Part shown: positions 3,784 to 17,233 of the stretch, piece after piece
How positions within the stretch are numbered: the first letter of the stretch is position 1
Layout of the letters: each line of letters starts with the position of its first letter
Origin: a bacterium
GTDB taxonomy: Bacteria > Caldisericota > Caldisericia > Cryosericales > Cryosericaceae
Assembly (NCBI GenBank): GCA_021373025.1
Contig: JAJFTL010000036.1
Location: forward strand, 1-18,133
DNA: 18,133 nucleotides
Direction: 5' to 3'
The notes under the pieces: model-generated
The model's database searches: none
What the model was told of the DNA's origin: nothing
The model's input: the letters and a program-made list of their open reading frames with translations, nothing else
Position numbers and translations under genes: made by a program

Positions 3784-3987
3784 CTATCCGAATGAGACGG
3801 GCGGGCGGGGAGGCCTGCAGGACTCGCTGTCTCCGGCCGATTCTTCGAAACGGATCTCCATACGCCACTGCTTGATAAAATCAGCAGCTGATGGAGAGAA
3901 GCGCGTGCCGACTGGAAAACACAGAACGATCCCTGTCTCCGGTCTCCGTATCTTGCTTCTTATTTCTGCTTCGGTAACGATTCGCAT
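3784..3987 (-). CDS. Small hypothetical protein (67 aa) carrying an EutQ N-terminal-like motif
   Basis: VTEAEIRSKIRRPETGIVLCFPVGTRFSPSAADFIKQWRMEI aligns position by position with the N-terminus of the EutQ in this window (ISKFDIERLKSEGQTVLHLEPGDTLTPLARDTALELGIKL). It also aligns with E. coli EutQ (LITANDIRAAHARGEQ...SIITPEAREVADLLGF). An SD GAGGAG lies 7 nt upstream of the ATG. The ORF sits in the gap between eutC1 and pduO. Confidence 0.4.
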   Translation of the reverse strand: MRIVTEAEIRSKIRRPETGIVLCFPVGTRFSPSAADFIKQWRMEIRFEESAGDSESCRPPRPPVSFG

Positions 3988-4068: not shown

Positions 4069-4824
4069 CTACAGTTTGAGCGCGACGCCGCTCACCTTCT
4101 GCTCCAACATGCGCTTCGCGATATCAACAATCGTCGCTGCAGCTTCCATCGGGTTCAGGCCCTGGCTGTAGATGTTCGAGATACAGTTCCTTTCGCCATC
4201 AGTGTCAGTCATCTTTGCCTTATATGCCATGTAGGCGCTGAGACTGGTTTGAGTAACCAGGCCGGGCCGTTCACCGATCAGCATGATAGCGACGTCAGGC
4301 TGCAGAACACGGCACACGTCATTCAACAGACGAACACGACCATTGTCCACATAGAACGGTGTCCCAAATGTGATACCGGCAGCCTCAAAACCATGTTTCA
4401 AAGCTGGCAGCAGATCTGGCAGATTCTCCATGACAGCAGAAGACGAGAGTCCTTCACTGATAAACACCTGAACCTGCGCTCCCTTCTTGCAATGAGCAAG
4501 AATCGCTTCTTCAGCTTCCTTGGTGAGAATGCCACCTTTCTCGGGATGGGCGAGGTAATCGTGCTTGTCCGTACAGACTGTGGAAACGCGAAGCGCAACG
4601 CCATGCTCCGTCAGGAACTCGTCAGGGATCCTGGTCCAGATCGCATCCTTCGCCGATGCTTCATCAAGACGGAACGACAACCATGCATCCACGGGAGGCC
4701 TGGCTCCTACACGCCCCGTTGCAATACGTGCAGGAGTTGCTCGCATCATTCCTTCGATCGCTTCGCGGTTGTATGGATTCTTGACACCCATTGCCCTGTG
4801 CTCAAAACCTTTTAGTTCACCCAT
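4069..4824 (-). CDS. eutC: Ethanolamine ammonia-lyase small subunit EutC, copy 1 (short N-terminus)
   Basis: 251 aa. The conserved TPARIATGRVGARPP motif matches TPARIGVGRAGPRP in E. coli EutC. The C-terminal ERPGL...SAYMAYK region is conserved. It lies 15 nt downstream of eutB1. Confidence 0.85.
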   Translation of the reverse strand: MGELKGFEHRAMGVKNPYNREAIEGMMRATPARIATGRVGARPPVDAWLSFRLDEASAKDAIWTRIPDEFLTEHGVALRVSTVCTDKHDYLAHPEKGGILTKEAEEAILAHCKKGAQVQVFISEGLSSSAVMENLPDLLPALKHGFEAAGITFGTPFYVDNGRVRLLNDVCRVLQPDVAIMLIGERPGLVTQTSLSAYMAYKAKMTDTDGERNCISNIYSQGLNPMEAAATIVDIAKRMLEQKVSGVALKL

Positions 4825-4839: not shown

Positions 4840-6228
4840 CTACCAGAGGAAGATGTCAGACGGCTCGGCGGAGAAGATGGACGGATCGCCAGCTCTGTCA
4901 GTGAGTTTGCCATTTTTCAGCAAGCCCATTCGTTCCATCCAGCGCTCAAACTCGGGAGCCGGGTGCCGGTCAAAGACCTCGCGCATCGAGGCGTCATCAT
5001 GGTTGCTCGTGTCCTGGTAGCTCAGCATGACATCGTCACCCATGGGGATACCCATGTAGTAGACAGCACCACCAATCCCAGCAAGCAGGTTCGCCATTTC
5101 CTGACCGTTATGGTTCATATCAACATGGTTGACATAGCAGGGTGCCATGCCCATCGGGAATCCATGCATCTTGCCGGCAAACAAGTCTTCAAGAGTGCCG
5201 TAGGCGATCTGGAAGGTATCAAGATGGGTCTCCGGCCCGATGAACCCAGTGACATTGTTCACACAGAAAGGTCGGAAGTGACGGCCGTATCCATAGGTGC
5301 GGGACTCAAGTGTCTGTTCGTCGCAGCCGAAATCAAGACCGACCGACATCTCGGAGCCTTGGCCGGTCTCGAAATACATAACGTTGGGGCCTGCGCAGAA
5401 GGAGTACTCGCGAGCAAGAGCCCATGCCTCTTCCATCATCTTGAGGTCGATGCCGAAGCCCTTGTTGGCTGGCTCACATCCGGCAATGCTCTGGAAGAAC
5501 AGACCGATGTGTGCGCCACGTTTGGCGGCTTCCATTTGGCCGGTGATGTGCCCAAGAGCTGAGTTCTGGGTAGGAATCTGCCACTTTTCGATGAGCCCAT
5601 ACGTCATCTCAAGGATGCGCACGAGTGTATCTGGAGTTGGATCCACTGGGTTGACGCCGATAACGACATCGCCCGCACCATAGGAAAGGCCGTCAAGAAT
5701 CGAGGCACGAATGCCGTCGATGTCGTCCGTCGGGTGGTTTGGTTGGTTGCGGAAGGACATCGTTCCAGGCAAACCAATAGTGGTGTTGGCCGTTGTCACG
5801 TTAATGATTTTCTTGGATGCAACGACCAGGTCCATGACCGACATGATACGGATAACAGCAGAGATCATTTCCGAGGTCAGCCCGACACGAATTCGTTGAA
5901 TGTCCTCGTTGGTAGTGTTCTGATCAAGCAGGTATCCACGCAGGTCGGCGACGGTCCAACCTTTGATCTTGTTGTAGATAGTCTTGTTCGTATCGTCGAT
6001 GATGACGCGCGTAACTTCGTCTGTCTCATAGGGGAGAACGGGGTTTTCGAAGATATCCTGAAGGGTCAGATTCGCTACAACCCACTTGGCCGCGATACGC
6101 TCGCGTTCGGATTGTGCTGCGACCCCGATCAATTCATCGCCGGACCGCTTCTCTGCCGATTTGGCAAGGACATCCTTCACAGACTTGAAGGAATACGCCT
6201 GTCCTTGCAGCGTTGTTGTGAGATTCAT
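4840..6228 (-). CDS. eutB: Ethanolamine ammonia-lyase large subunit EutB, copy 1 (the more divergent paralogue)
   Basis: 462 aa. PNHPTDD, LSYGAGDVVIGVNP, NVMYFETGQGSE, GFIGPE and GIPMGDDVMLSYQ are EutB TIM-barrel signatures. The region after GFIGPE diverges markedly from canonical EutB and from copy 2. Confidence 0.9.
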   Translation of the reverse strand: MNLTTTLQGQAYSFKSVKDVLAKSAEKRSGDELIGVAAQSERERIAAKWVVANLTLQDIFENPVLPYETDEVTRVIIDDTNKTIYNKIKGWTVADLRGYLLDQNTTNEDIQRIRVGLTSEMISAVIRIMSVMDLVVASKKIINVTTANTTIGLPGTMSFRNQPNHPTDDIDGIRASILDGLSYGAGDVVIGVNPVDPTPDTLVRILEMTYGLIEKWQIPTQNSALGHITGQMEAAKRGAHIGLFFQSIAGCEPANKGFGIDLKMMEEAWALAREYSFCAGPNVMYFETGQGSEMSVGLDFGCDEQTLESRTYGYGRHFRPFCVNNVTGFIGPETHLDTFQIAYGTLEDLFAGKMHGFPMGMAPCYVNHVDMNHNGQEMANLLAGIGGAVYYMGIPMGDDVMLSYQDTSNHDDASMREVFDRHPAPEFERWMERMGLLKNGKLTDRAGDPSIFSAEPSDIFLW

Positions 6229-6265
6229 ATATTACTCCTGATTGTGAGATTCATAGCTCCTCCTG
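6216..6265 (-). repeat. Tandem direct repeat (about 25-nt unit) duplicating the SD, ATG and first four codons of eutB1, creating a 9-codon leader ORF (MNLTIRSNI*) whose TGA overlaps the eutB1 ATG
   Basis: On the minus strand the sequence reads CAGGAGGAGCT ATG AAT CTC ACA ATC AGG AGT AAT ATA TGA. The eutB1 ATG (6228-6226) overlaps that TGA and continues AAT CTC ACA ACA ACG. The 13-mer TTGTGAGATTCAT occurs at 6216-6228 and again at 6242-6254. Confidence 0.6.
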
Positions 6266-6341
6266 AAACTCTCGGTTCCTGGTTGATACACAAATATCCT
6301 CGAACATCGAGGCCGCGGCTTCGATACCCCCTGCACGACCG

Positions 6342-7586
6342 CTACGGAACGATTGGACTTGGCGTCGTTTTGCCAAGTTTGATCGTCTCCTGGAATGGAC
6401 GCCAGAGGCCAGTGTTCTCATCACGACCCTGAAGAAGCACCACGCGAGCCGCACTTGCTTGGCCAGGAAGTGCCTCCTTATACAGCGATCCAATATCTCC
6501 ACCCTTCACTCGATTGATGAGGTAGATCAGCTTCGTCTGTGGAAACTGGGTCATCATCTCAAAGTCACCATCGCTGTCGCCGGCAACAAAGAGAGGAGCT
6601 TCTTTGATGAAGTTGCGAATGACCGTTGCTTTTCCCATGCGCTGGGTCAGTTCATAGCCGGGTTCTTCACTCAGCTTGGCAATGTACTTCCCGGACGCAT
6701 CCGTCTGGAGACGAACGCCAATCACATGGTCTTCAGGAACGTCGTACCCGTTGATTGCGGCAACTGCCTGGACGACCGGCTCAAATGATGCAGATACCAC
6801 CCACACCTTCCAGCCATAATACCGCTGTTTCGACATCATGTCGATGATGCCCTGGGAAAGGCGGATGCCTGCCCTATATGTATACGAGGCTACAGCGGCT
6901 TTTCGCTCAAGACCTGTTGGGGCATGCATAGTAATCTTCTCGATCTTACGAGCAAGTGCATCATTGAGTGCGGCGACTGCCATCTTCTGGACTTCCGCCT
7001 CGGTCATCCCTTCGCAGAGAAAACAGACCCAAGGATACGAGTACTCGGCACCAATCTCGGGAGTGTCTGTCAGCCCATCATACATGAATGGCAGTTTGAC
7101 CAGAAAATCCTGATACTCTGGTGTCGCCGTGATTTCCTCCAGCGTCATCTTCTTGAGACCGATATAGTTGTCATACAAAAAGGCATAGTCGGCCTGAATG
7201 TCCGAGGCGAGGTCCGCAAGAACCACATTGCCATAATCGGCCGAAAACTTCACAACATTGGAATCCTTGAGGGTCTTTCCTGCAGCTTCCGGGATAATGC
7301 TGTTGAAAGCTTCTTTACTCATTGCATAGTCCAGGTTGAACATCTGGAAACGGAACATCGTCTCCATGATGTCATTGTAGATGCACGTATTATCCCAGTC
7401 ATAGACGGCCACCGGATGCGTCGGACCATACTTCTTGATAAACCAGTCCGTATAGATCCAGTTAAACGGTGTATAGCCAACGTACGTTCCGGACGGAACG
7501 CCGGCTGCCAGGGTGATACCTGAAACCGATGAAACGAGCAGTGCGACAAGGAGCACAATCGATATGATCTTGATGGTTCGTTTCAT
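6342..7586 (-). CDS. Secreted or membrane-anchored HAD-superfamily hydrolase (HAD-IB-like with a large cap domain)
   Basis: The start is re-assigned to the ATG at 7586, which is preceded by a GGGGA SD. The N-terminus MKRTIKIISIVLLVALLVSSVSGITLAAG is a signal peptide or signal anchor. HAD motif I is VAVYDWDNT (DxDxT). Motif II is VWVVSAS. Motif IV is LFVAGDSDGDFEMM. The ORF track extends the frame to 7748 through an intergenic hairpin, which is unlikely to be real coding sequence. Confidence 0.7.
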   Translation of the reverse strand: MKRTIKIISIVLLVALLVSSVSGITLAAGVPSGTYVGYTPFNWIYTDWFIKKYGPTHPVAVYDWDNTCIYNDIMETMFRFQMFNLDYAMSKEAFNSIIPEAAGKTLKDSNVVKFSADYGNVVLADLASDIQADYAFLYDNYIGLKKMTLEEITATPEYQDFLVKLPFMYDGLTDTPEIGAEYSYPWVCFLCEGMTEAEVQKMAVAALNDALARKIEKITMHAPTGLERKAAVASYTYRAGIRLSQGIIDMMSKQRYYGWKVWVVSASFEPVVQAVAAINGYDVPEDHVIGVRLQTDASGKYIAKLSEEPGYELTQRMGKATVIRNFIKEAPLFVAGDSDGDFEMMTQFPQTKLIYLINRVKGGDIGSLYKEALPGQASAARVVLLQGRDENTGLWRPFQETIKLGKTTPSPIVP

Positions 7587-7631: not shown

Positions 7632-7674
7632 TGAGACGAGGGTCAGTTCACAAGAGCAGGCCAACCCTCGCCTC
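7632..7674 (-). promoter_or_regulatory. 12-bp inverted repeat (one G·U wobble) with a 20-nt spacer, located 45 to 90 nt upstream of the HAD-hydrolase start codon
   Basis: Minus-strand sequence: TGAGGCGAGGGT tggcctgctcttgtgaactg ACCCTCGTCTCA. It could be a 5'-UTR hairpin or an operator-like palindrome. Confidence 0.3.
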
Positions 7675-7705
7675 AGGAAACAATGTAACTTGCTCCACAT
7701 GATAC

Positions 7706-7738
7706 CGCTGGCTCGGCCCGTTTCGGGATGGAGCCAGC
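7706..7738 (-). promoter_or_regulatory. Stem-loop following the eutQ stop (GCTGGCTC...GAGCCAGC outer stem with an inner CCCG-AAA-CGGG). Candidate U-tract-less terminator or processing site.
   Basis: Minus-strand sequence: TAG TTATTGAGATACA GCTGGCTC CAT CCCG AAA CGGG CC GAGCCAGC GGTATCATG. The outer stem is an 8-bp perfect stem enclosing a 4-bp inner hairpin. Nothing downstream is U-rich. Confidence 0.35.
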
Positions 7739-7751
7739 TGTATCTCAATAA

Positions 7752-8447
7752 CTAGGAGTTGATCTGCTCTGTCCAGTTGGACGGGAACGTAACGTAGAAG
7801 ATCTTGGTCCAGGTCGGGGTATTCCAGTGAACAGCAGAACCCTTGGGGATGAAGACACAATCACCACGATCTGCAACGAGCGTCTTCCCCTCGCACGTGA
7901 TCTCCATGCGACCCTCAACGACGTAATCAATCTCGTCATAGTTTAGTGTCCAGCTGAAGCCAGGCCCCTTGTGCCATGACATGAATCCACCGGAAATGCT
8001 GGCGGAGTCATCCATCGTAATCACGTCCAAAAGTCGGAAATCAATCTCTGGTGGATCTCTCCGGACGCCATCTTTGTCAATGAGCGGGGAGGATGGCATA
8101 TCGGCATCTTGTGGATACTTTGCCAATTTCAGCTGGCCAGGACGAGTGCCATAGACCTTCGGTGTTGAGCACGGAGGGCATGTTTCAGGCTGACCAGCCG
8201 GTCCAAGACGCTCAAGAACGGCCTTGACAATCGCCTCAAGCTTGTCCGCGCTTGGTGCAGGCGCAGTCGTCGGAGCAGGAGCGCTGCCATGAATCGGTTC
8301 TCTGGAGTCTTCAAGCTTGATGCCCAGCTCGAGCGCGGTATCACGAGCCAAAGGGGTCAAGGTGTCACCAGGCTCGAGATGGAGGACAGTTTGTCCTTCG
8401 CTCTTGAGTCTTTCAATGTCGAACTTTGAAATGATGCGCTTCTCCAT
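7752..8447 (-). CDS. eutQ: EutQ, a cupin-fold ethanolamine utilisation protein (acetate-kinase type)
   Basis: 231 aa. The C-terminal cupin GDCVFIPKGSAVHWNTPTWTKIFYVTFPSNW matches E. coli EutQ GDVMFIPKGSSIEF...YVAWPANW. The N-terminal I-x-x-x-DI...TPLARDTALELGI motif is typical of EutQ. A Pro/Ala-rich linker separates the two parts. Confidence 0.75.
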   Translation of the reverse strand: MEKRIISKFDIERLKSEGQTVLHLEPGDTLTPLARDTALELGIKLEDSREPIHGSAPAPTTAPAPSADKLEAIVKAVLERLGPAGQPETCPPCSTPKVYGTRPGQLKLAKYPQDADMPSSPLIDKDGVRRDPPEIDFRLLDVITMDDSASISGGFMSWHKGPGFSWTLNYDEIDYVVEGRMEITCEGKTLVADRGDCVFIPKGSAVHWNTPTWTKIFYVTFPSNWTEQINS

Positions 8448-8935: not shown

Positions 8936-10111
8936 TTAGGCTGCCACCGGTTCGCGGTAGTCAGCCTTCGGAGCAACCAGAGTTGCTATGATAAGACCGA
9001 GGATACCGGCAAAAAGCTTGCCGATGATTAACGGCCCGATAAACTCCTTCGCGTTAGCCGCCGTGAATCCGAGGTGGTCAGCAAAGGTGAAGGCTGCGGC
9101 AACCTGAAATGCCGCGTTGAGTACCTTTCCACGAGGTGTCATGTCCTTGAACATACCCCACATGGGAATGTTGTTCGCGAGCGTCGCAACAAGTCCTGCA
9201 GCGCCGACATTGTCCATACCCAGCATCCTGCCAAGAGAACTAAGGGGCTTTGCAAGAACGGTCGTCAGGAACTTTACCATTGGATAGGCACCAGCAAGAG
9301 CCAATGCAATGGAGCCAATGACTTCAAGACCTTCCATGACCATAGCCTGGGCCTCGGGATCATAGTGAGAGAACGTGGGGGACATGCCTTGGAGAATCGT
9401 TACGCCGGTCTGGGTCTGGAAGATGACAAGGCCAAGACCCACGAGGATGAAGCTGGTGATGAACTTGCCGAAGTAGATGAAGCCCTTGACCATTGCTTCG
9501 CGCGCAAACAGAAGACCTGCAGCGATCAGAGCTGCAACAATGAAGACGGGAACAAGGTAGGCAAGGGACAGCCCGAAGGGATTGCCTGCCAGAACACTCT
9601 GAAGCAACGCACCAAACGGGGCAACGATGATGCCAGCCAGAATACCAAGCGCCAGATACTTGCGATCTTTTGCTTCAATGATACCAAGTCCGACAGGGAT
9701 GTTGAAGACGATGTTGACACCGAAAACGGAGCCCAGGAGCAGACCACCGAAGTAACCGACCCAGACAGGATCGCCGGCGGTCTTGGCAAGCTGGAGACCG
9801 AGGGGCGTTGCACCCATGTCGATAGCCAGCAGTGTGCCAGCGAACATGGCGGTCTTGGAGCCAAGAGCAGTGTAGATCGGGCCAACCACCGGGATCAGCC
9901 ACTTGCCAAGCAATGGAGTCATTGCGATGATTCCAACCATGGCAAGCGCCAGGGGGCCCATGGCGTTGAAGCCATTCTCCATCTCTGCACCAAAACCATC
10001 AATAATCGGAACCTTCCAGTCTGGAGCCCAATATTTGATGATCCTGTCGATAATGCCAAGAACTGCGAAGATTGCCATGATCCACAATACTACTTTGCTA
10101 ATTGCAGCCAT
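8936..10111 (-). CDS. eutH: EutH ethanolamine permease
   Basis: About 391 aa polytopic membrane protein with many hydrophobic helices, in the EutH family context between eutE and eutM. The start is re-assigned to the ATG at 10111 ([15 protein letters not shown]...), which is preceded by AGGAAGGGG. The ORF track extends a further 44 codons to 10243. Confidence 0.8.
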
Positions 10112-10273
10112 TACTACACCCCTTCCTTTGCATGAGAGTATGGTATATTGCACAGCCAACGTACTATTCCAACTAGTCGGAATCTCACTTTTCTGTTCTG
10201 TCCAGGCCTTGCCTCCTCTCCGGCCACTGCAGTCACTGCCCATTTGGCCGTCACAGCGTCACGTTCTTCCATC

Positions 10274-12690: not shown

Positions 12691-13557
12691 CTAAGCTCTC
12701 TTCGCAGTGGCGAGTGCAACGCCGCTGGTCTTGTACTTCAGGTAATCCTTGACAAGAGCGACTGCCTCAGCAGCTGCTTCGATCGGGTCCTTGCCGCGCT
12801 TGGAGATCATGCAGATGTTGTCGCGGTTAGCATCGGTCGTGAGCGGCTCCCAACGAGGCTTGTAGCCCATGTAGATGGAGAGTGCATCAGAGATGATGAG
12901 ACCCGGGCGCTCGCCAATCAGTACGACGACGACCTCTGCGTTCAGGAGCGCTCCAACATCATTCATGATGCCGACGCGTGCGCGGTTGACATAGATCGGG
13001 GTACCGATATTGATGCCGGCAGCCTTGAGTCCATCAATCATTGCATTCAGGACGTCCTTGGCGGAATGCTCGATGGCGTATCCACTCAGGCCGTTGCTGA
13101 CAACAAACTGAACGGTCGGGTTCTTGGCACACTTCTCAAGAACGACGGCCTTGGCCTCGTCACTCAGCTTTCGGCCAAGCGGAGGAAAGCGCAGATAGGT
13201 CTCAAGAGAGCCATTTGCAGCAGTCTCGCCGACATGTAGGAGTCCCATTGCCGTAACGGTCTCTTCTGGAATAACGTACTTCAATGAGTCCTGTGTAGCA
13301 GCATGGTCCGCTCGCATCTGGAAATACGTGAGCAGCTTTGGACGGGGACCGTTGCGACCAACGCAAATGCGAAGAGGTGTCGCATGGATGAGGGCCTTTG
13401 CGCCTTCAGGATCGACCGGATGATCGATGCCAACAGTTTCGCGAGCCTCTGTCGTCGTCACATCGGTCACGTCACAGCTGAACTTGGCAGCTTCGTCGCG
13501 CCTTGCTACAATGTCAGCCTGGCTCTGCTTTCCAACGTAAAGTTCGTATGTAGCCAT
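12691..13557 (-). CDS. eutC: Ethanolamine ammonia-lyase small subunit EutC, copy 2 (with an N-terminal extension of roughly 50 aa)
   Basis: 288 aa. The ATPLRICVGRNGPRP motif and the C-terminal GERPGL...SIYMGYKP region are conserved. It lies 15 nt downstream of eutB2. Confidence 0.85.
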   Translation of the reverse strand: MATYELYVGKQSQADIVARRDEAAKFSCDVTDVTTTEARETVGIDHPVDPEGAKALIHATPLRICVGRNGPRPKLLTYFQMRADHAATQDSLKYVIPEETVTAMGLLHVGETAANGSLETYLRFPPLGRKLSDEAKAVVLEKCAKNPTVQFVVSNGLSGYAIEHSAKDVLNAMIDGLKAAGINIGTPIYVNRARVGIMNDVGALLNAEVVVVLIGERPGLIISDALSIYMGYKPRWEPLTTDANRDNICMISKRGKDPIEAAAEAVALVKDYLKYKTSGVALATAKRA

Positions 13558-16435: not shown

Positions 16436-17233
16436 TTACTTTTCTGCTTTGTGATTGTTCTTTCTTGCAGCATCGTTTTTGTCAACAAACAGATATGCCT
16501 TCAGTGACGTAACCAATGCCTTCTTTGCCCCCTGCACTTTCTTGAGTTCCTCGACTGAACCGAATGGTCCCTGCTGCTCACGAAACTCGACAATGCGCTC
16601 CGCAAGTGCAGGACCCACACCGGGCAAGGCATCAAGCTGACTTGCTGTTGCCGTGTTCAGATTGACTCGCTTTCCCGGGGTCCTGGACACCGGCTGTTGC
16701 GCAGCAAGAGAGAAGTCCGCGTGAGCGGGCTGGATGGGCGATCGTATAGGAGCGGTTTCCCCTGCGGGCACTGTGCTCACCTTCTGTTCCGCAGGAATCG
16801 CGGCTTCTTCTGCTGAAGCTGTCAATGCCTGTGCGCCGGGCTCAGCAGGCGTTTTGACCGAAGGTGACGCATCCATGCTTCCGGGTACCGGAGTCGTGCC
16901 GGGTGCAGGACTCGCTCCCTCGCCAACGGGGAGTCCAAGGTTCCTGTTCATCGCATCGACGATCATATCAATGTCGCGATCTGGACGTGGAATGACGTGA
17001 ATGGACACCAATTCCCCCACCCGCTGCGCAGCGGCTGCCCCTGCATCCGTGGCTGCCTTCACTGCTCCAACATCGCCACGAACAGCAACCGTCACCAGGC
17101 CGTCTCCAGAGTATCCCTTCCCGACAAGCCGCACATTGGCGGACTTGACCATGGCATCTGCCGCCTCAATGGCACCAATAAGCCCCCTGGTCTCAATCAA
17201 CCCCAACGCAACAAGCTTTTCGCTGTCAGGCAT
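16436..17233 (-). CDS. BMC-H shell domain fused by a long P/A/S/T-rich linker to a C-terminal ComEA-like helix-hairpin-helix domain
   Basis: Residues 1 to about 90 form a canonical BMC domain ([32 protein letters not shown]...[13 protein letters not shown]), about 80% identical to the eutM product. An approximately 90-residue low-complexity linker follows. Residues from about 185 read [55 protein letters not shown]. This matches the ComEA C-terminal HhH repeat region (INLNTA..EL..LPGIGP..A..I..YRE.NG.F.S.EDL..V.GIG...L..L). The second HhH lacks the GIG motif. Confidence 0.8.

Follow-up and report, generated by a model that had tools for sequence, protein, structure and literature searches.

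The gene lying between eutQ and the second eutBC pair of a eut microcompartment operon very probably encodes an exported, active HAD phosphatase that is functionally tied to ethanolamine use. The fuller statement, in which the product is an exported phosphatase resembling phosphorylcholine phosphatase (PchP) that acts mainly on phosphoethanolamine and feeds the permease EutH, is made with less assurance and is only modestly favoured. We infer both phosphoethanolamine as the substrate and the physiological coupling to EutH; a role in ethanolamine release would fit the kinship with PchP and the recruitment of the gene into eut loci in separate lineages. Within the window (the whole stretch of DNA that was analysed, 18,133 nucleotides), the gene and its relevant neighbours are positioned as follows.

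6342 to 7586, minus strand: HAD phosphatase gene, 414 amino acids, coordinates including the stop codon
7594 to 7597, minus strand: Shine–Dalgarno GGGG, 7 nt upstream of the HAD ATG, read from the sequence
7752 to 8447, minus strand: eutQ, upstream neighbour of the HAD gene position in every Cryosericum-type locus
4840 to 6228, minus strand: eutB2, second EAL large subunit, downstream neighbour of the HAD gene
8936 to 10111, minus strand: eutH, ethanolamine permease (PF04346, E 1e-110, match beginning at residue 48)

The open reading frame begins with an ATG at 7586 and ends with a stop codon at 6342–6344 on the minus strand, and the (A/G)GGGGA element ahead of the ATG is kept across 8 orthologous loci. 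A second eutC at 4069–4824 is paired with eutB2. Gene calls and coordinates bear out the original prediction that the HAD gene sits between eutQ and the second eutBC pair and is co-directional with them. The same prediction described the gene as tightly embedded in the operon, which overstates the case: spacers of 165 nt and 113 nt separate it from eutQ and eutB2, so that the gene is embedded, yet not tightly. EutH, whose likely start is Met45 of a long open reading frame (orthologues are 387–391 aa), is the presumed importer of the phosphatase product. The window encodes neither a phospholipase C nor another source of phosphoethanolamine. Public data contain a protein identical to the HAD product and orthologues at 62–90% identity, and relatives were found in 448 of about 185,000 species genomes.

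The catalytic apparatus of the protein can be read along the gene.

7386 to 7400, minus strand: HAD motif I, D63-W-D65-N-T67, with nucleophile Asp63 and acid/base Asp65
6867 to 7385, minus strand: cap domain, residues 68–240, mostly helical, between motifs I and II (AF2 secondary structure)
6786 to 6806, minus strand: HAD motif II, VWVVSAS, residues 261–267, Ser265 being the motif II Ser/Thr
6630 to 6632, minus strand: HAD motif III lysine K319, within an invariant G318-K319
6564 to 6581, minus strand: HAD motif IV, G336-D-S-D-G-D341, Mg2+ ligands, with D337 and D341 invariant

The three HAD motifs and the large cap that had been recognised beforehand were thus located (residues 63–67, 261–267 and 336–341, with the helical cap separating motifs I and II in the AF2 model). 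The protein has all four HAD motifs, and they do not vary among 34 homologues (alignment A1), D63, D65 and T67 included; the position of S265 is occupied by serine or threonine throughout the family. In the cap, D72 likewise never varies, and conservation of E75 is 90% or higher. The AF2 model is confident (pLDDT 89) and displays a Rossmann-like core fold plus the cap, and its structural neighbours are all HAD-IB/C1-cap proteins. Profile searches gave 38.5 bits for PF12710 (Pfam cut-off 27) and 41.9 for the HAD-IB model TIGR01488, slightly below its cut-off of 45. The assignment of the predicted product as a HAD phosphatase with a C1-type cap, HAD-IB-like by modelled fold and by Pfam, is supported by these results. 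A best match to the housekeeping enzyme SerB, which would have spoken against the proposed role, was not obtained (TIGR00338 gives 17.4 bits, its cut-off being 144.15). Among characterised proteins the nearest relative is PchP of Pseudomonas aeruginosa (PA5292; PDB 4AS2/4AS3), which resides in the periplasm and cleaves both phosphocholine and phosphoethanolamine (PMC3170909). The profile of the family matches PchP at E 2e-22 versus 8e-8 for PSP, and although the HAD protein shares only 22% identity with PchP, homology is detectable past the generic HAD core.

To establish how consistently the gene accompanies ethanolamine use, its position was compared across genomes. In all 12 Cryosericum-type loci found via the HAD protein, the gene directly follows eutQ, with or without a second eutBC. 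Five Ignavibacteriota-type loci are arranged differently: eutH is followed by the gene for a conserved secreted protein of 367 aa, then by the HAD gene and, without a gap, by eutA; the 367-aa protein had zero matches in Pfam, NCBIfam and PDB profile searches. The HAD proteins of the two locus types fall into separate clades on the neighbour-joining tree of the family, which supports the view that recruitment into eut loci occurred independently in at least two lineages, as judged from sequence. The gene is therefore present in orthologous eut loci, a check that accompanied the original prediction, and because the family occurs inside the eut loci of at least two unrelated lineages there is good support for a link to ethanolamine use. 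Overall, the neighbour family seen most often is EutB. However, in about 65 of 80 genome loci of the family eut genes are absent within 10 kb, showing that the HAD family does not serve ethanolamine use exclusively. The neighbours of these non-eut members revealed no common theme and are lineage-specific housekeeping genes (CinA, DegT, sugar transferase, SAICAR synthase and assorted ABC ATPases).

Two further loci were treated as weak associations. In one Brevibacillus locus (L080) the HAD gene is convergent with the eut operon, an arrangement not shared by three other Brevibacillus loci; in another locus (L024) only distant EutBC-like genes occur, 3 kb away.

Loci collected via EutQ, by contrast with those collected via the HAD protein, are split: among 13 informative loci the HAD gene is present in six and deleted in seven. 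The HAD-less sister loci carry deletion scars with three separate junctions, indicating that the gene is ancestral and a dispensable accessory, and its absence from about half of these loci indicates that it is unnecessary for the eut pathway itself. Codon usage and GC3 of the HAD gene match those of neighbouring genes, and its dN/dS (0.04–0.05) is similar to that of eutH. The HAD gene is an old, dispensable accessory of the eut operon that is under purifying selection and has been lost repeatedly. A foreign insert was considered and is ruled out by the neighbour-like codon usage and the deletion scars.

Strong hairpins on both flanks had been taken as a sign that the gene is a separately regulated insert. 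Folding of the flanking spacers identified the following elements.

7701 to 7744, minus strand: hairpin 1 of the eutQ–HAD spacer, from folding, with a counterpart of differing sequence in all orthologous spacers
7632 to 7675, minus strand: hairpin 2 of the eutQ–HAD spacer, 15-bp stem, about −25 kcal/mol, no U tract
6298 to 6312, minus strand: small stem-loop CCTCGA-TGT-TCGAGG, then ATATTTGTGT, 3′ of the HAD stop codon

The upstream pair is real by this measure, as the folding energy of the eutQ–HAD spacer is −67.8 kcal/mol (z = −4.3), a stability reached by 0 of 200 shuffled sequences. Hairpin 2 occurs in 8 of 8 orthologous spacers examined, 41–47 nt from the ATG in seven and 63 nt in the remaining one (L013). 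It shows compensatory two-sided base changes at four stem positions, a reading that is partly circular in that spacers were folded singly and pairs were read at aligned 5′ columns. RNAalifold on a MAFFT alignment of the eutQ–HAD spacers returned no useful consensus fold because the 3′ arms are out of register. The downstream flank did not hold up: the stem there has 6 bp only, followed by a T-rich stretch, and the HAD–eutB2 spacer as a whole has no unusual structure (z +0.85). In relatives a CCTC...GAGG stem stands at equal distance before eutB2, even where the HAD gene has been deleted. Neither hairpin 1 nor hairpin 2 is a classical terminator, and the common deletion junction of the sister loci lies just past hairpin 1. 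An Rfam scan of the whole window (E up to 1) found no riboswitch or known leader, its sole match being a sub-threshold MAT2A inside a coding region, and a promoter/terminator scan detected no excess of sites over shuffled sequence. With neighbour-like codon usage and GC3, an ancestral position marked by scars and hairpins that lack a U tract, the notion of a separately regulated insert was abandoned.

The dispensability of the gene and the breadth of its family bear on what the enzyme is for. They would suit a broad-specificity extracytoplasmic phosphatase that scavenges phosphate, one that would owe its place in the eut operon to co-expression or history and would benefit the cell through inorganic phosphate rather than ethanolamine supply; one Prolixibacteraceae locus, in which PhoU/PHO4 genes and a two-component system lie within a few kb, points the same way. 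We regard this explanation as doubtful but worth keeping in view. Against it, placement beside eutH/eutA or eutQ arose independently in at least two lineages and EutB leads the list of neighbours. Moreover, PchP, the nearest relative with a characterised function, acts specifically on phospho-amino alcohols (PMC3170909), and the acidic cap residues equivalent to its D40 and E43 are conserved.

It was also considered that the enzyme might use a different phosphorylated compound, either an amino alcohol or an amino acid (phosphocholine, N-methylated phosphoethanolamines, 1-amino-2-propanol phosphate or phosphoserine) and thereby feed the divergent second EutBC. The HAD gene immediately precedes eutB2, in which the equivalent of Asp362 is Ala, phosphocholine is the preferred substrate of PchP (PMC3170909), and a homologue from Anaerococcus lies beside serine dehydratase genes, a hint of substrate variation in the family. 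However, the two genes are separable in both directions: the HAD gene is found in the absence of eutBC2 in loci L001-3 and L015 and in all Ignavibacteriota loci, and eutBC2 is retained where the HAD gene has been deleted (L096 and L098). eutB2 is dispensable for the HAD–eut association. Furthermore, many EutB proteins of Firmicutes have the Ala-Pro form, which is thus not tied to the HAD gene. A different substrate destined for the second EutBC is accordingly rated improbable.

Whether the enzyme acts outside the cytoplasm depends on its N-terminus, for which a signal peptide or anchor had been proposed.

7506 to 7586, minus strand: signal peptide region, residues 1–27, with n-region MKRTIK, h-region IISIVLLVALLVSSV and c-region SGITLA

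The N-terminus (MKRTIK, the hydrophobic segment, then SGITLA/AG) has the n, h and c regions of a Sec-type signal, with three positive charges and a 12-mer of mean Kyte–Doolittle value 3.5, and cleavage is likely near TLA/AG, to judge from these residues. A hydrophobic signal segment is present in 80 of 81 homologues and a lipobox cysteine in at least 42 of them; both the signal peptide call and the family-wide export survey are heuristic (hydrophobicity, charge, lipobox). The proposed signal or anchor is in this respect well matched by the sequence. N-terminal helices are common on microcompartment cargo, and the AF2 model places a helix at residues 2–21 followed by a disordered linker at 20–34, so an intracellular enzyme whose N-terminus serves as a cytoplasm-facing membrane anchor or as a microcompartment targeting helix was also weighed; the Anaerococcus homologue is cytoplasmic. 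This arrangement is very unlikely. The segment is uniformly hydrophobic rather than amphipathic, the positive charges that precede it specify an N-in orientation, and the lipobox cysteine at the equivalent place in relatives is a hallmark of export.

That the protein is a non-orthologous phosphate acetyltransferase (acetyl-CoA + Pi → acetyl phosphate) is scarcely credible: the HAD protein carries an export signal and so could not meet acetyl-CoA, a PF01515 Pta gene lies a few kb beyond pduS on related Cryosericum contigs, the catalytic set is of the phosphatase type, and CoA-dependent acyl transfer is not known from any HAD enzyme. The idea comes from Fusobacteria, in 12 of which a PF12710 HAD with 28% identity to PchP was reported in eut clusters; the acetyltransferase activity was predicted for this PchP-like protein because the clusters lack Pta/PduL but contain the HAD (Ravcheev et al, 2019; PMC6620236). 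A HAD gene is also listed in the eut locus of F. nucleatum (PMC11601286). The original statement that extracytoplasmic HAD phosphatases are absent from described eut operons is consequently true only in part, given these Fusobacterial reports of a PF12710 HAD. The 240 matches listed for the HAD protein searches include none named as a Fusobacterium protein.

Returning to the exported phosphatase with phosphoethanolamine as its main substrate, a Mg2+-dependent HAD phosphomonoesterase would be exported via the Sec pathway, its N-terminal signal either cleaved or retained as an anchor, with the catalytic domain facing outward in both cases. Outside the cytoplasm it would dephosphorylate O-phosphoethanolamine, a breakdown product of phosphatidylethanolamine. 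Asp63 would attack the phosphorus to form an aspartyl-phosphate, with Asp65 as acid/base, Ser265 and Lys319 holding the phosphate, and Asp337 and Asp341 holding Mg2+. The cap would shut on the leaving group, and the conserved acidic residues Asp72 and Glu75 probably contact its ammonium. Free ethanolamine would then enter by EutH, encoded three genes upstream of the HAD gene, and be converted to acetyl-CoA and ammonia by EutBC and EutE in the microcompartment; the freed phosphate would be a second benefit. Glycerophosphoethanolamine and phospholipids are phosphodiesters, on which a HAD phosphomonoesterase is unlikely to act. The suggestion that glycerophosphoethanolamine or phospholipid derivatives might be hydrolysed was for this reason dropped.

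Accounts of ethanolamine microcompartments usually begin with free ethanolamine. If the proposal is true, the start of the pathway moves one step upstream, to phosphoethanolamine from membrane lipids, envelope nutrient scavenging becomes tied to the organelle, and a widespread uncharacterised HAD family gains its first functional lead. More tentatively, the eut-linked members could form an envelope module for harvesting head groups, composed of an exported or lipoprotein phosphatase and EutH, with phosphoethanolamine from decaying membranes, instead of free ethanolamine, as the real environmental feedstock of these microcompartments. The Ignavibacteriota module would add a dedicated secreted protein, which may be an outer-membrane protein, and the repeated deletion in sister populations would reflect public-good (cheater) dynamics. 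The Fusobacterial eut HAD would in that case be reassigned from phosphotransacetylase to phosphoethanolamine phosphatase. An exported phosphatase is a testable alternative to the published guess for the similar Fusobacterium gene, and the alternative is of consequence for F. nucleatum, which encounters tissue rich in phosphoethanolamine (PMC9239216).

Comparison with known systems places the HAD protein closest to PchP, with which it shares the HAD fold, the large helical cap and signal-peptide export. The PchP residues found important by mutagenesis (D31, D33, T35, S166, K242, D262, D265 and D267; PMC3170909) all have counterparts: D31, D33 and T35, shown to be catalytic, correspond to D63, D65 and T67, S166 to S265 and K242 to K319, while G261, D262, D265 and D267 align with HAD motif IV. 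D40 and E43 of PchP, close to the amine site, correspond to D72 and E75 (alignment at PchP YRYDLEES; PMC3170909). The residues assigned to the alkylammonium site of PchP are E42, E43 and Y82–Y84; the equivalent of E42 is Met74 in the HAD protein and Glu in most family members, and no aromatic residues align with the YYY triplet. The pathway of PchP subsequently consumes the released amine (PMC3170909), as proposed here. The HAD protein is about 60 residues longer, with a family-specific C-terminal motif, LLQGR(D/N)ENTG, and its gene is part of a eut microcompartment operon; PchP, in contrast, belongs to a choline regulon. The Fusobacterial eut HAD, likened by description only, is PchP-like and inside a eut microcompartment cluster, as here. 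A solved structure exists for one family member, 4GXT from Anaerococcus prevotii, annotated as a ‘conserved functionally unknown protein’; it has no signal peptide, its alignment beginning at about residue 31 of the family profile, and its gene neighbours are two Lyase_1 (aspartase-like), MaoC, SDF transporter and L-serine dehydratase genes, with no eut genes. SerB-type phosphoserine phosphatases (HAD-IB) differ in being cytoplasmic housekeeping enzymes with a small cap. AphA (class B) and class C lipoproteins such as e(P4) are secreted HAD (DDDD) acid phosphatases with another cap type and much lower structural similarity to the HAD protein; they act on nucleotides and NMN and are unconnected to eut.

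The window is a single long eut microcompartment operon on the minus strand, which reads eutN, a BMC-H/helix-hairpin-helix fusion, eutA, eutB1, eutC1, a eutL-like gene, an aldehyde dehydrogenase gene, eutH, eutM, eutQ, the HAD gene, eutB2, eutC2, a PduO-type adenosyltransferase gene, eutJ, and genes for a BMC-T protein and a PduS-like protein. In the fusion (16436-17233, minus strand) a long linker rich in Pro and Ala connects a BMC-H shell protein with a DNA-binding helix-hairpin-helix domain resembling that of ComEA (PF12836, E 3.5e-20), and this arrangement is kept in related loci. The HAD gene is laid out as follows.

7701-7744, eutQ-HAD gene spacer: hairpin 1
7632-7675, eutQ-HAD gene spacer: hairpin 2
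7 nt ahead of the start, minus strand: Shine-Dalgarno sequence GGGG
7586 (ATG) to 6342 (stop), minus strand: HAD gene, 414 aa
residues 63-67: motif I, DWDNT
residues 261-267: motif II, VWVVSAS
K319: motif III lysine
residues 336-341: motif IV, GDSDGD
6298-6312: small downstream stem, recurring in relatives

All three motifs named in the original prediction (DWDNT, VWVVSAS and GDSDGD) were found, and the catalytic machinery is intact: D63, D65, T67, D72, K319, D337, D341 and a C-terminal motif, LLQGR-E--G, are invariant in an alignment of 34 homologues, and E75 is kept in at least 90% of them. The protein passed Pfam PF12710 (38.5 bits, cut-off 27) and narrowly missed the NCBIfam HAD-IB model (41.9, cut-off 45); cytosolic SerB was not its best match, the SerB model scoring 17, far below its cut-off of 144. 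In a confident AlphaFold model built from the alignment (pLDDT 89, pTM 0.86), a helix at the N-terminus leads through a disordered linker (residues 20-34) to a Rossmann-like core, with a mostly helical cap inserted between motifs I and II. Among solved structures the best sequence match was 4GXT (E 9e-38), a structural-genomics entry of unknown function from Anaerococcus; PchP, the phosphorylcholine phosphatase of Pseudomonas aeruginosa, ranked second in the structural comparison, marking kinship with a phospho-amino-alcohol phosphatase.

Comparison of the HAD protein with solved structures
4GXT: 43.4
PchP (4AS2): 27.3, 273 residues aligned
4OVY: 21
3FVV: 18
Phosphoserine phosphatases: about 12-14

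The 4GXT-type gene of Anaerococcus encodes a cytoplasmic homologue without a signal peptide. It lies in a run of genes (locus L089, 5219-12809) that also encode two Lyase_1 proteins (aspartase/fumarase-like), MaoC, an SDF-family transporter and the alpha and beta subunits of L-serine dehydratase, a setting that is a possible clue to the function of 4GXT. It is our speculation that beta-amino phosphomonoesters (phosphoserine, phosphoethanolamine, phosphocholine) might be the theme of the family, which would fit these neighbours.

The HAD protein carries an export signal: three positively charged residues, then a hydrophobic stretch of 15 residues and a c-region of small residues. Export was judged by a heuristic, a hydrophobic 12-mer with a mean Kyte-Doolittle value of at least 1.8, applied to the 81 homologues with complete N-termini. 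Such a segment was present in 80, and in at least 42 of the 81 it was directly followed by a lipobox cysteine; among close relatives, the lipobox reads VVSC in locus L013 and AVSC in the L001/L015 group. These counts bear out the N-terminal signal originally proposed and predict that the family is extracytoplasmic, with few exceptions. The hydrophobic segment of the HAD protein has no amphipathic character, a point against its being a helix for targeting to the microcompartment.

Linkage to eut genes is recurrent. Orthologues (62-100% identity) all came from Cryosericum/Caldiserica-type MAGs and two MAGs labelled Spirochaetes and Treponema, and in 12/12 of their loci the HAD gene directly follows eutQ, so that the suggested co-occurrence holds. 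Five more distant loci (L001-3, L014 and L015; 64-69% identity) are without eutBC2, the second lyase pair, and the adenosyltransferase gene, and there eutJ follows at once; since the HAD gene stays where eutBC2 is absent, it is no appendage of that pair. Relatives were then sought in 185,579 species genomes, yielding 448, and neighbourhoods were taken from the best 80 loci. Five of these, of Ignavibacteriota type (38-42% identity), have the HAD gene inside a eut operon whose gene order differs from the Cryosericum type: a Cache histidine kinase and a LytTR regulator, eutH, a secreted 367-aa protein, the HAD gene (lipobox LGC), eutA from the very next base, eutB, eutC and eutL. In a neighbour-joining tree the Cryosericum clade, the L021 group and L079 (the latter two being Ignavibacteriota-type) stand apart. 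EutB was the commonest neighbour family of all; the other ~65 of the best 80 loci had no eut genes within 10 kb and no neighbours in common.

The 367-aa protein (L021, 8885-9988, plus strand; also L025, L032, L061 and L079) carries a signal peptide and has Phe as its last residue. The copies in the five loci share 49-94% identity, and searches of Pfam, NCBIfam and PDB gave no match; we suspect an outer-membrane protein, possibly a channel for the substrate. In two Desulfobacula MAGs (L033, 11320-15255; L041) the HAD homologue is immediately followed by a convergent PotABCD-like ABC transporter made up of two permeases, a TOBE-domain ATPase and a binding protein.

As a reverse test, metagenome contigs were searched with EutQ instead of the HAD protein. 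Among the 15 loci found, the HAD gene follows eutQ in 6 and is missing in 7. Sister Cryosericum eut loci carry three distinct deletions removing all or most of the gene. The commonest junction, common to five contigs from different samples (L098, L099, L100, L103 and L104), begins just past hairpin 1; ~970 bp are gone and the last ~350 bp of the gene are left as a 3′ remnant. L096 and L101 have two further junctions, each different. Scars at three junctions show that the gene was present first at the locus and has since disappeared on at least three occasions. Where retained, it is under purifying selection comparable to that on eutH (dN/dS 0.04-0.05, with dS near saturation). Together with GC3 and codon usage that are ordinary for the operon, the losses contradict the earlier idea of an inserted gene and show it to be a dispensable accessory.

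Flanking hairpins had also been proposed, and upstream they are clear: the 165-nt eutQ-HAD gene spacer forms two stems and is much more stably folded than its shuffled versions (z -4.3). The downstream stem is present, small and recurrent. Hairpins 1 and 2 both occur in 8/8 orthologous spacers; the distance from hairpin 2 to the ATG is 63 nt in L013 and 41-47 nt in the other seven. Four positions in the stem of hairpin 2 show changes in both partners among lineages (C-G/G-C, G-C/U-A, A-U/G-C, U-A/C-G/A-U); because the spacers were folded individually, these changes are suggestive but do not amount to a formal test of covariation. No U tract follows either hairpin, the stems matched no Rfam family, and a promoter scan gave background level. 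Our guess is that the spacer might hold a stem for processing, stabilisation or protein binding, which would determine how strongly the exported enzyme is expressed within the operon. A sub-threshold Rfam match to MAT2A 3′UTR stem-loop A (6898-6959, plus strand; 26.9 bits, gathering score 40), antisense within the HAD coding region, is almost certainly chance.

We infer phosphoethanolamine as the substrate and a coupling of the HAD protein to EutH: in the periplasm or on the cell surface, the exported phosphomonoesterase would take phosphate off O-phosphoethanolamine, EutH would import the freed ethanolamine, and the microcompartment would convert it. Phosphodiesters such as glycerophosphoethanolamine, which the original prediction had included, are unlikely substrates for HAD phosphatase chemistry. 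For eutH itself (8936-10243, minus strand), the longest ORF gives 435 aa, the Pfam match starts at residue 48 and orthologues have 387-391 aa; the true start is probably Met45, at nt 10111.

That the protein is instead a broad phosphate-scavenging phosphatase seems unlikely. Less probable still is that it provides a different amino alcohol for the divergent EutBC2, a role weakened by the independence of the HAD gene and eutBC2 from each other. A phosphotransacetylase, as proposed for a Fusobacterial HAD protein (PMC6620236), is incompatible with export and also unneeded here, because PF01515 Pta genes flank related loci.

EutB2 (4840-6228, minus strand) aligns gap-free to E. coli EutB and keeps R160, Q162, N193 and E287, with Ala at the substrate-binding Asp362 (GMAPCYVNH versus GCDCCYTNH); EutB1 retains Asp. 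The Ala-Pro form occurs in nearly all of the best 120 homologues of EutB2, including many Firmicutes EutB, and thus marks a widespread subtype; we know of no examination of its substrate range. No other protein of the locus is as conserved as EutB2 (dN/dS 0.01-0.03). EutC2 (251 aa; 4069-4824, minus strand) is without ~37 N-terminal residues of EutC1 (288 aa; 12691-13557, minus strand), a region that in other systems holds the peptide for targeting to the microcompartment; the second lyase may therefore lie outside it. Just 5′ of eutB2, a 26-nt tandem duplication (6228-6265, minus strand; ATGAATCTCACAA TCAGGAGTAATAT ATGAATCTCACAA), absent from 15 orthologous loci, creates a 9-codon mini-ORF, MNLTIRSNI, with its own AGGAG and a stop overlapping the real eutB2 start; this may be a genuine microduplication or may have arisen in the assembly. 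A 67-aa ORF (3784-3987, minus strand) in the 378-nt eutC2-adenosyltransferase gap is conserved in L005, and over its N-terminal half it is similar to the N-terminal segment of the window's EutQ (I..E.I....L..G..F.P.A.DF).

Our search of the full-text literature found no paper on a phosphoethanolamine phosphatase in a eut operon, in keeping with the novelty first claimed, and none tying Cryosericota to ethanolamine. That novelty is qualified by a PF12710 HAD protein, 28% identical to PchP, noted in eut clusters of 12 Fusobacteria (Ravcheev et al, 2019; PMC6620236); a HAD gene in the eut locus is also listed, without comment, by a 2024 study of F. nucleatum (PMC11601286). PchP reaches the periplasm once its signal peptide of 22 residues has been removed, and acts on phosphocholine, phosphoethanolamine and pNPP (PMC3170909, a review). 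A profile search with the 34-sequence alignment matched it at E 2e-22, and its catalytic residues known from mutagenesis (D31, D33, T35, S166, K242, D262, D265 and D267) all have a counterpart in the HAD protein. Beside the amine site, D40 and E43 of PchP correspond to D72 and E75, whereas E42 is replaced by Met74 and the YYY triplet is unmatched. Compared with these systems, a known kind of enzyme, a PchP-like exported phosphatase, is here wired into a microcompartment operon; its export signal, independent recruitment in Ignavibacteriota and repeated loss appear to be new.
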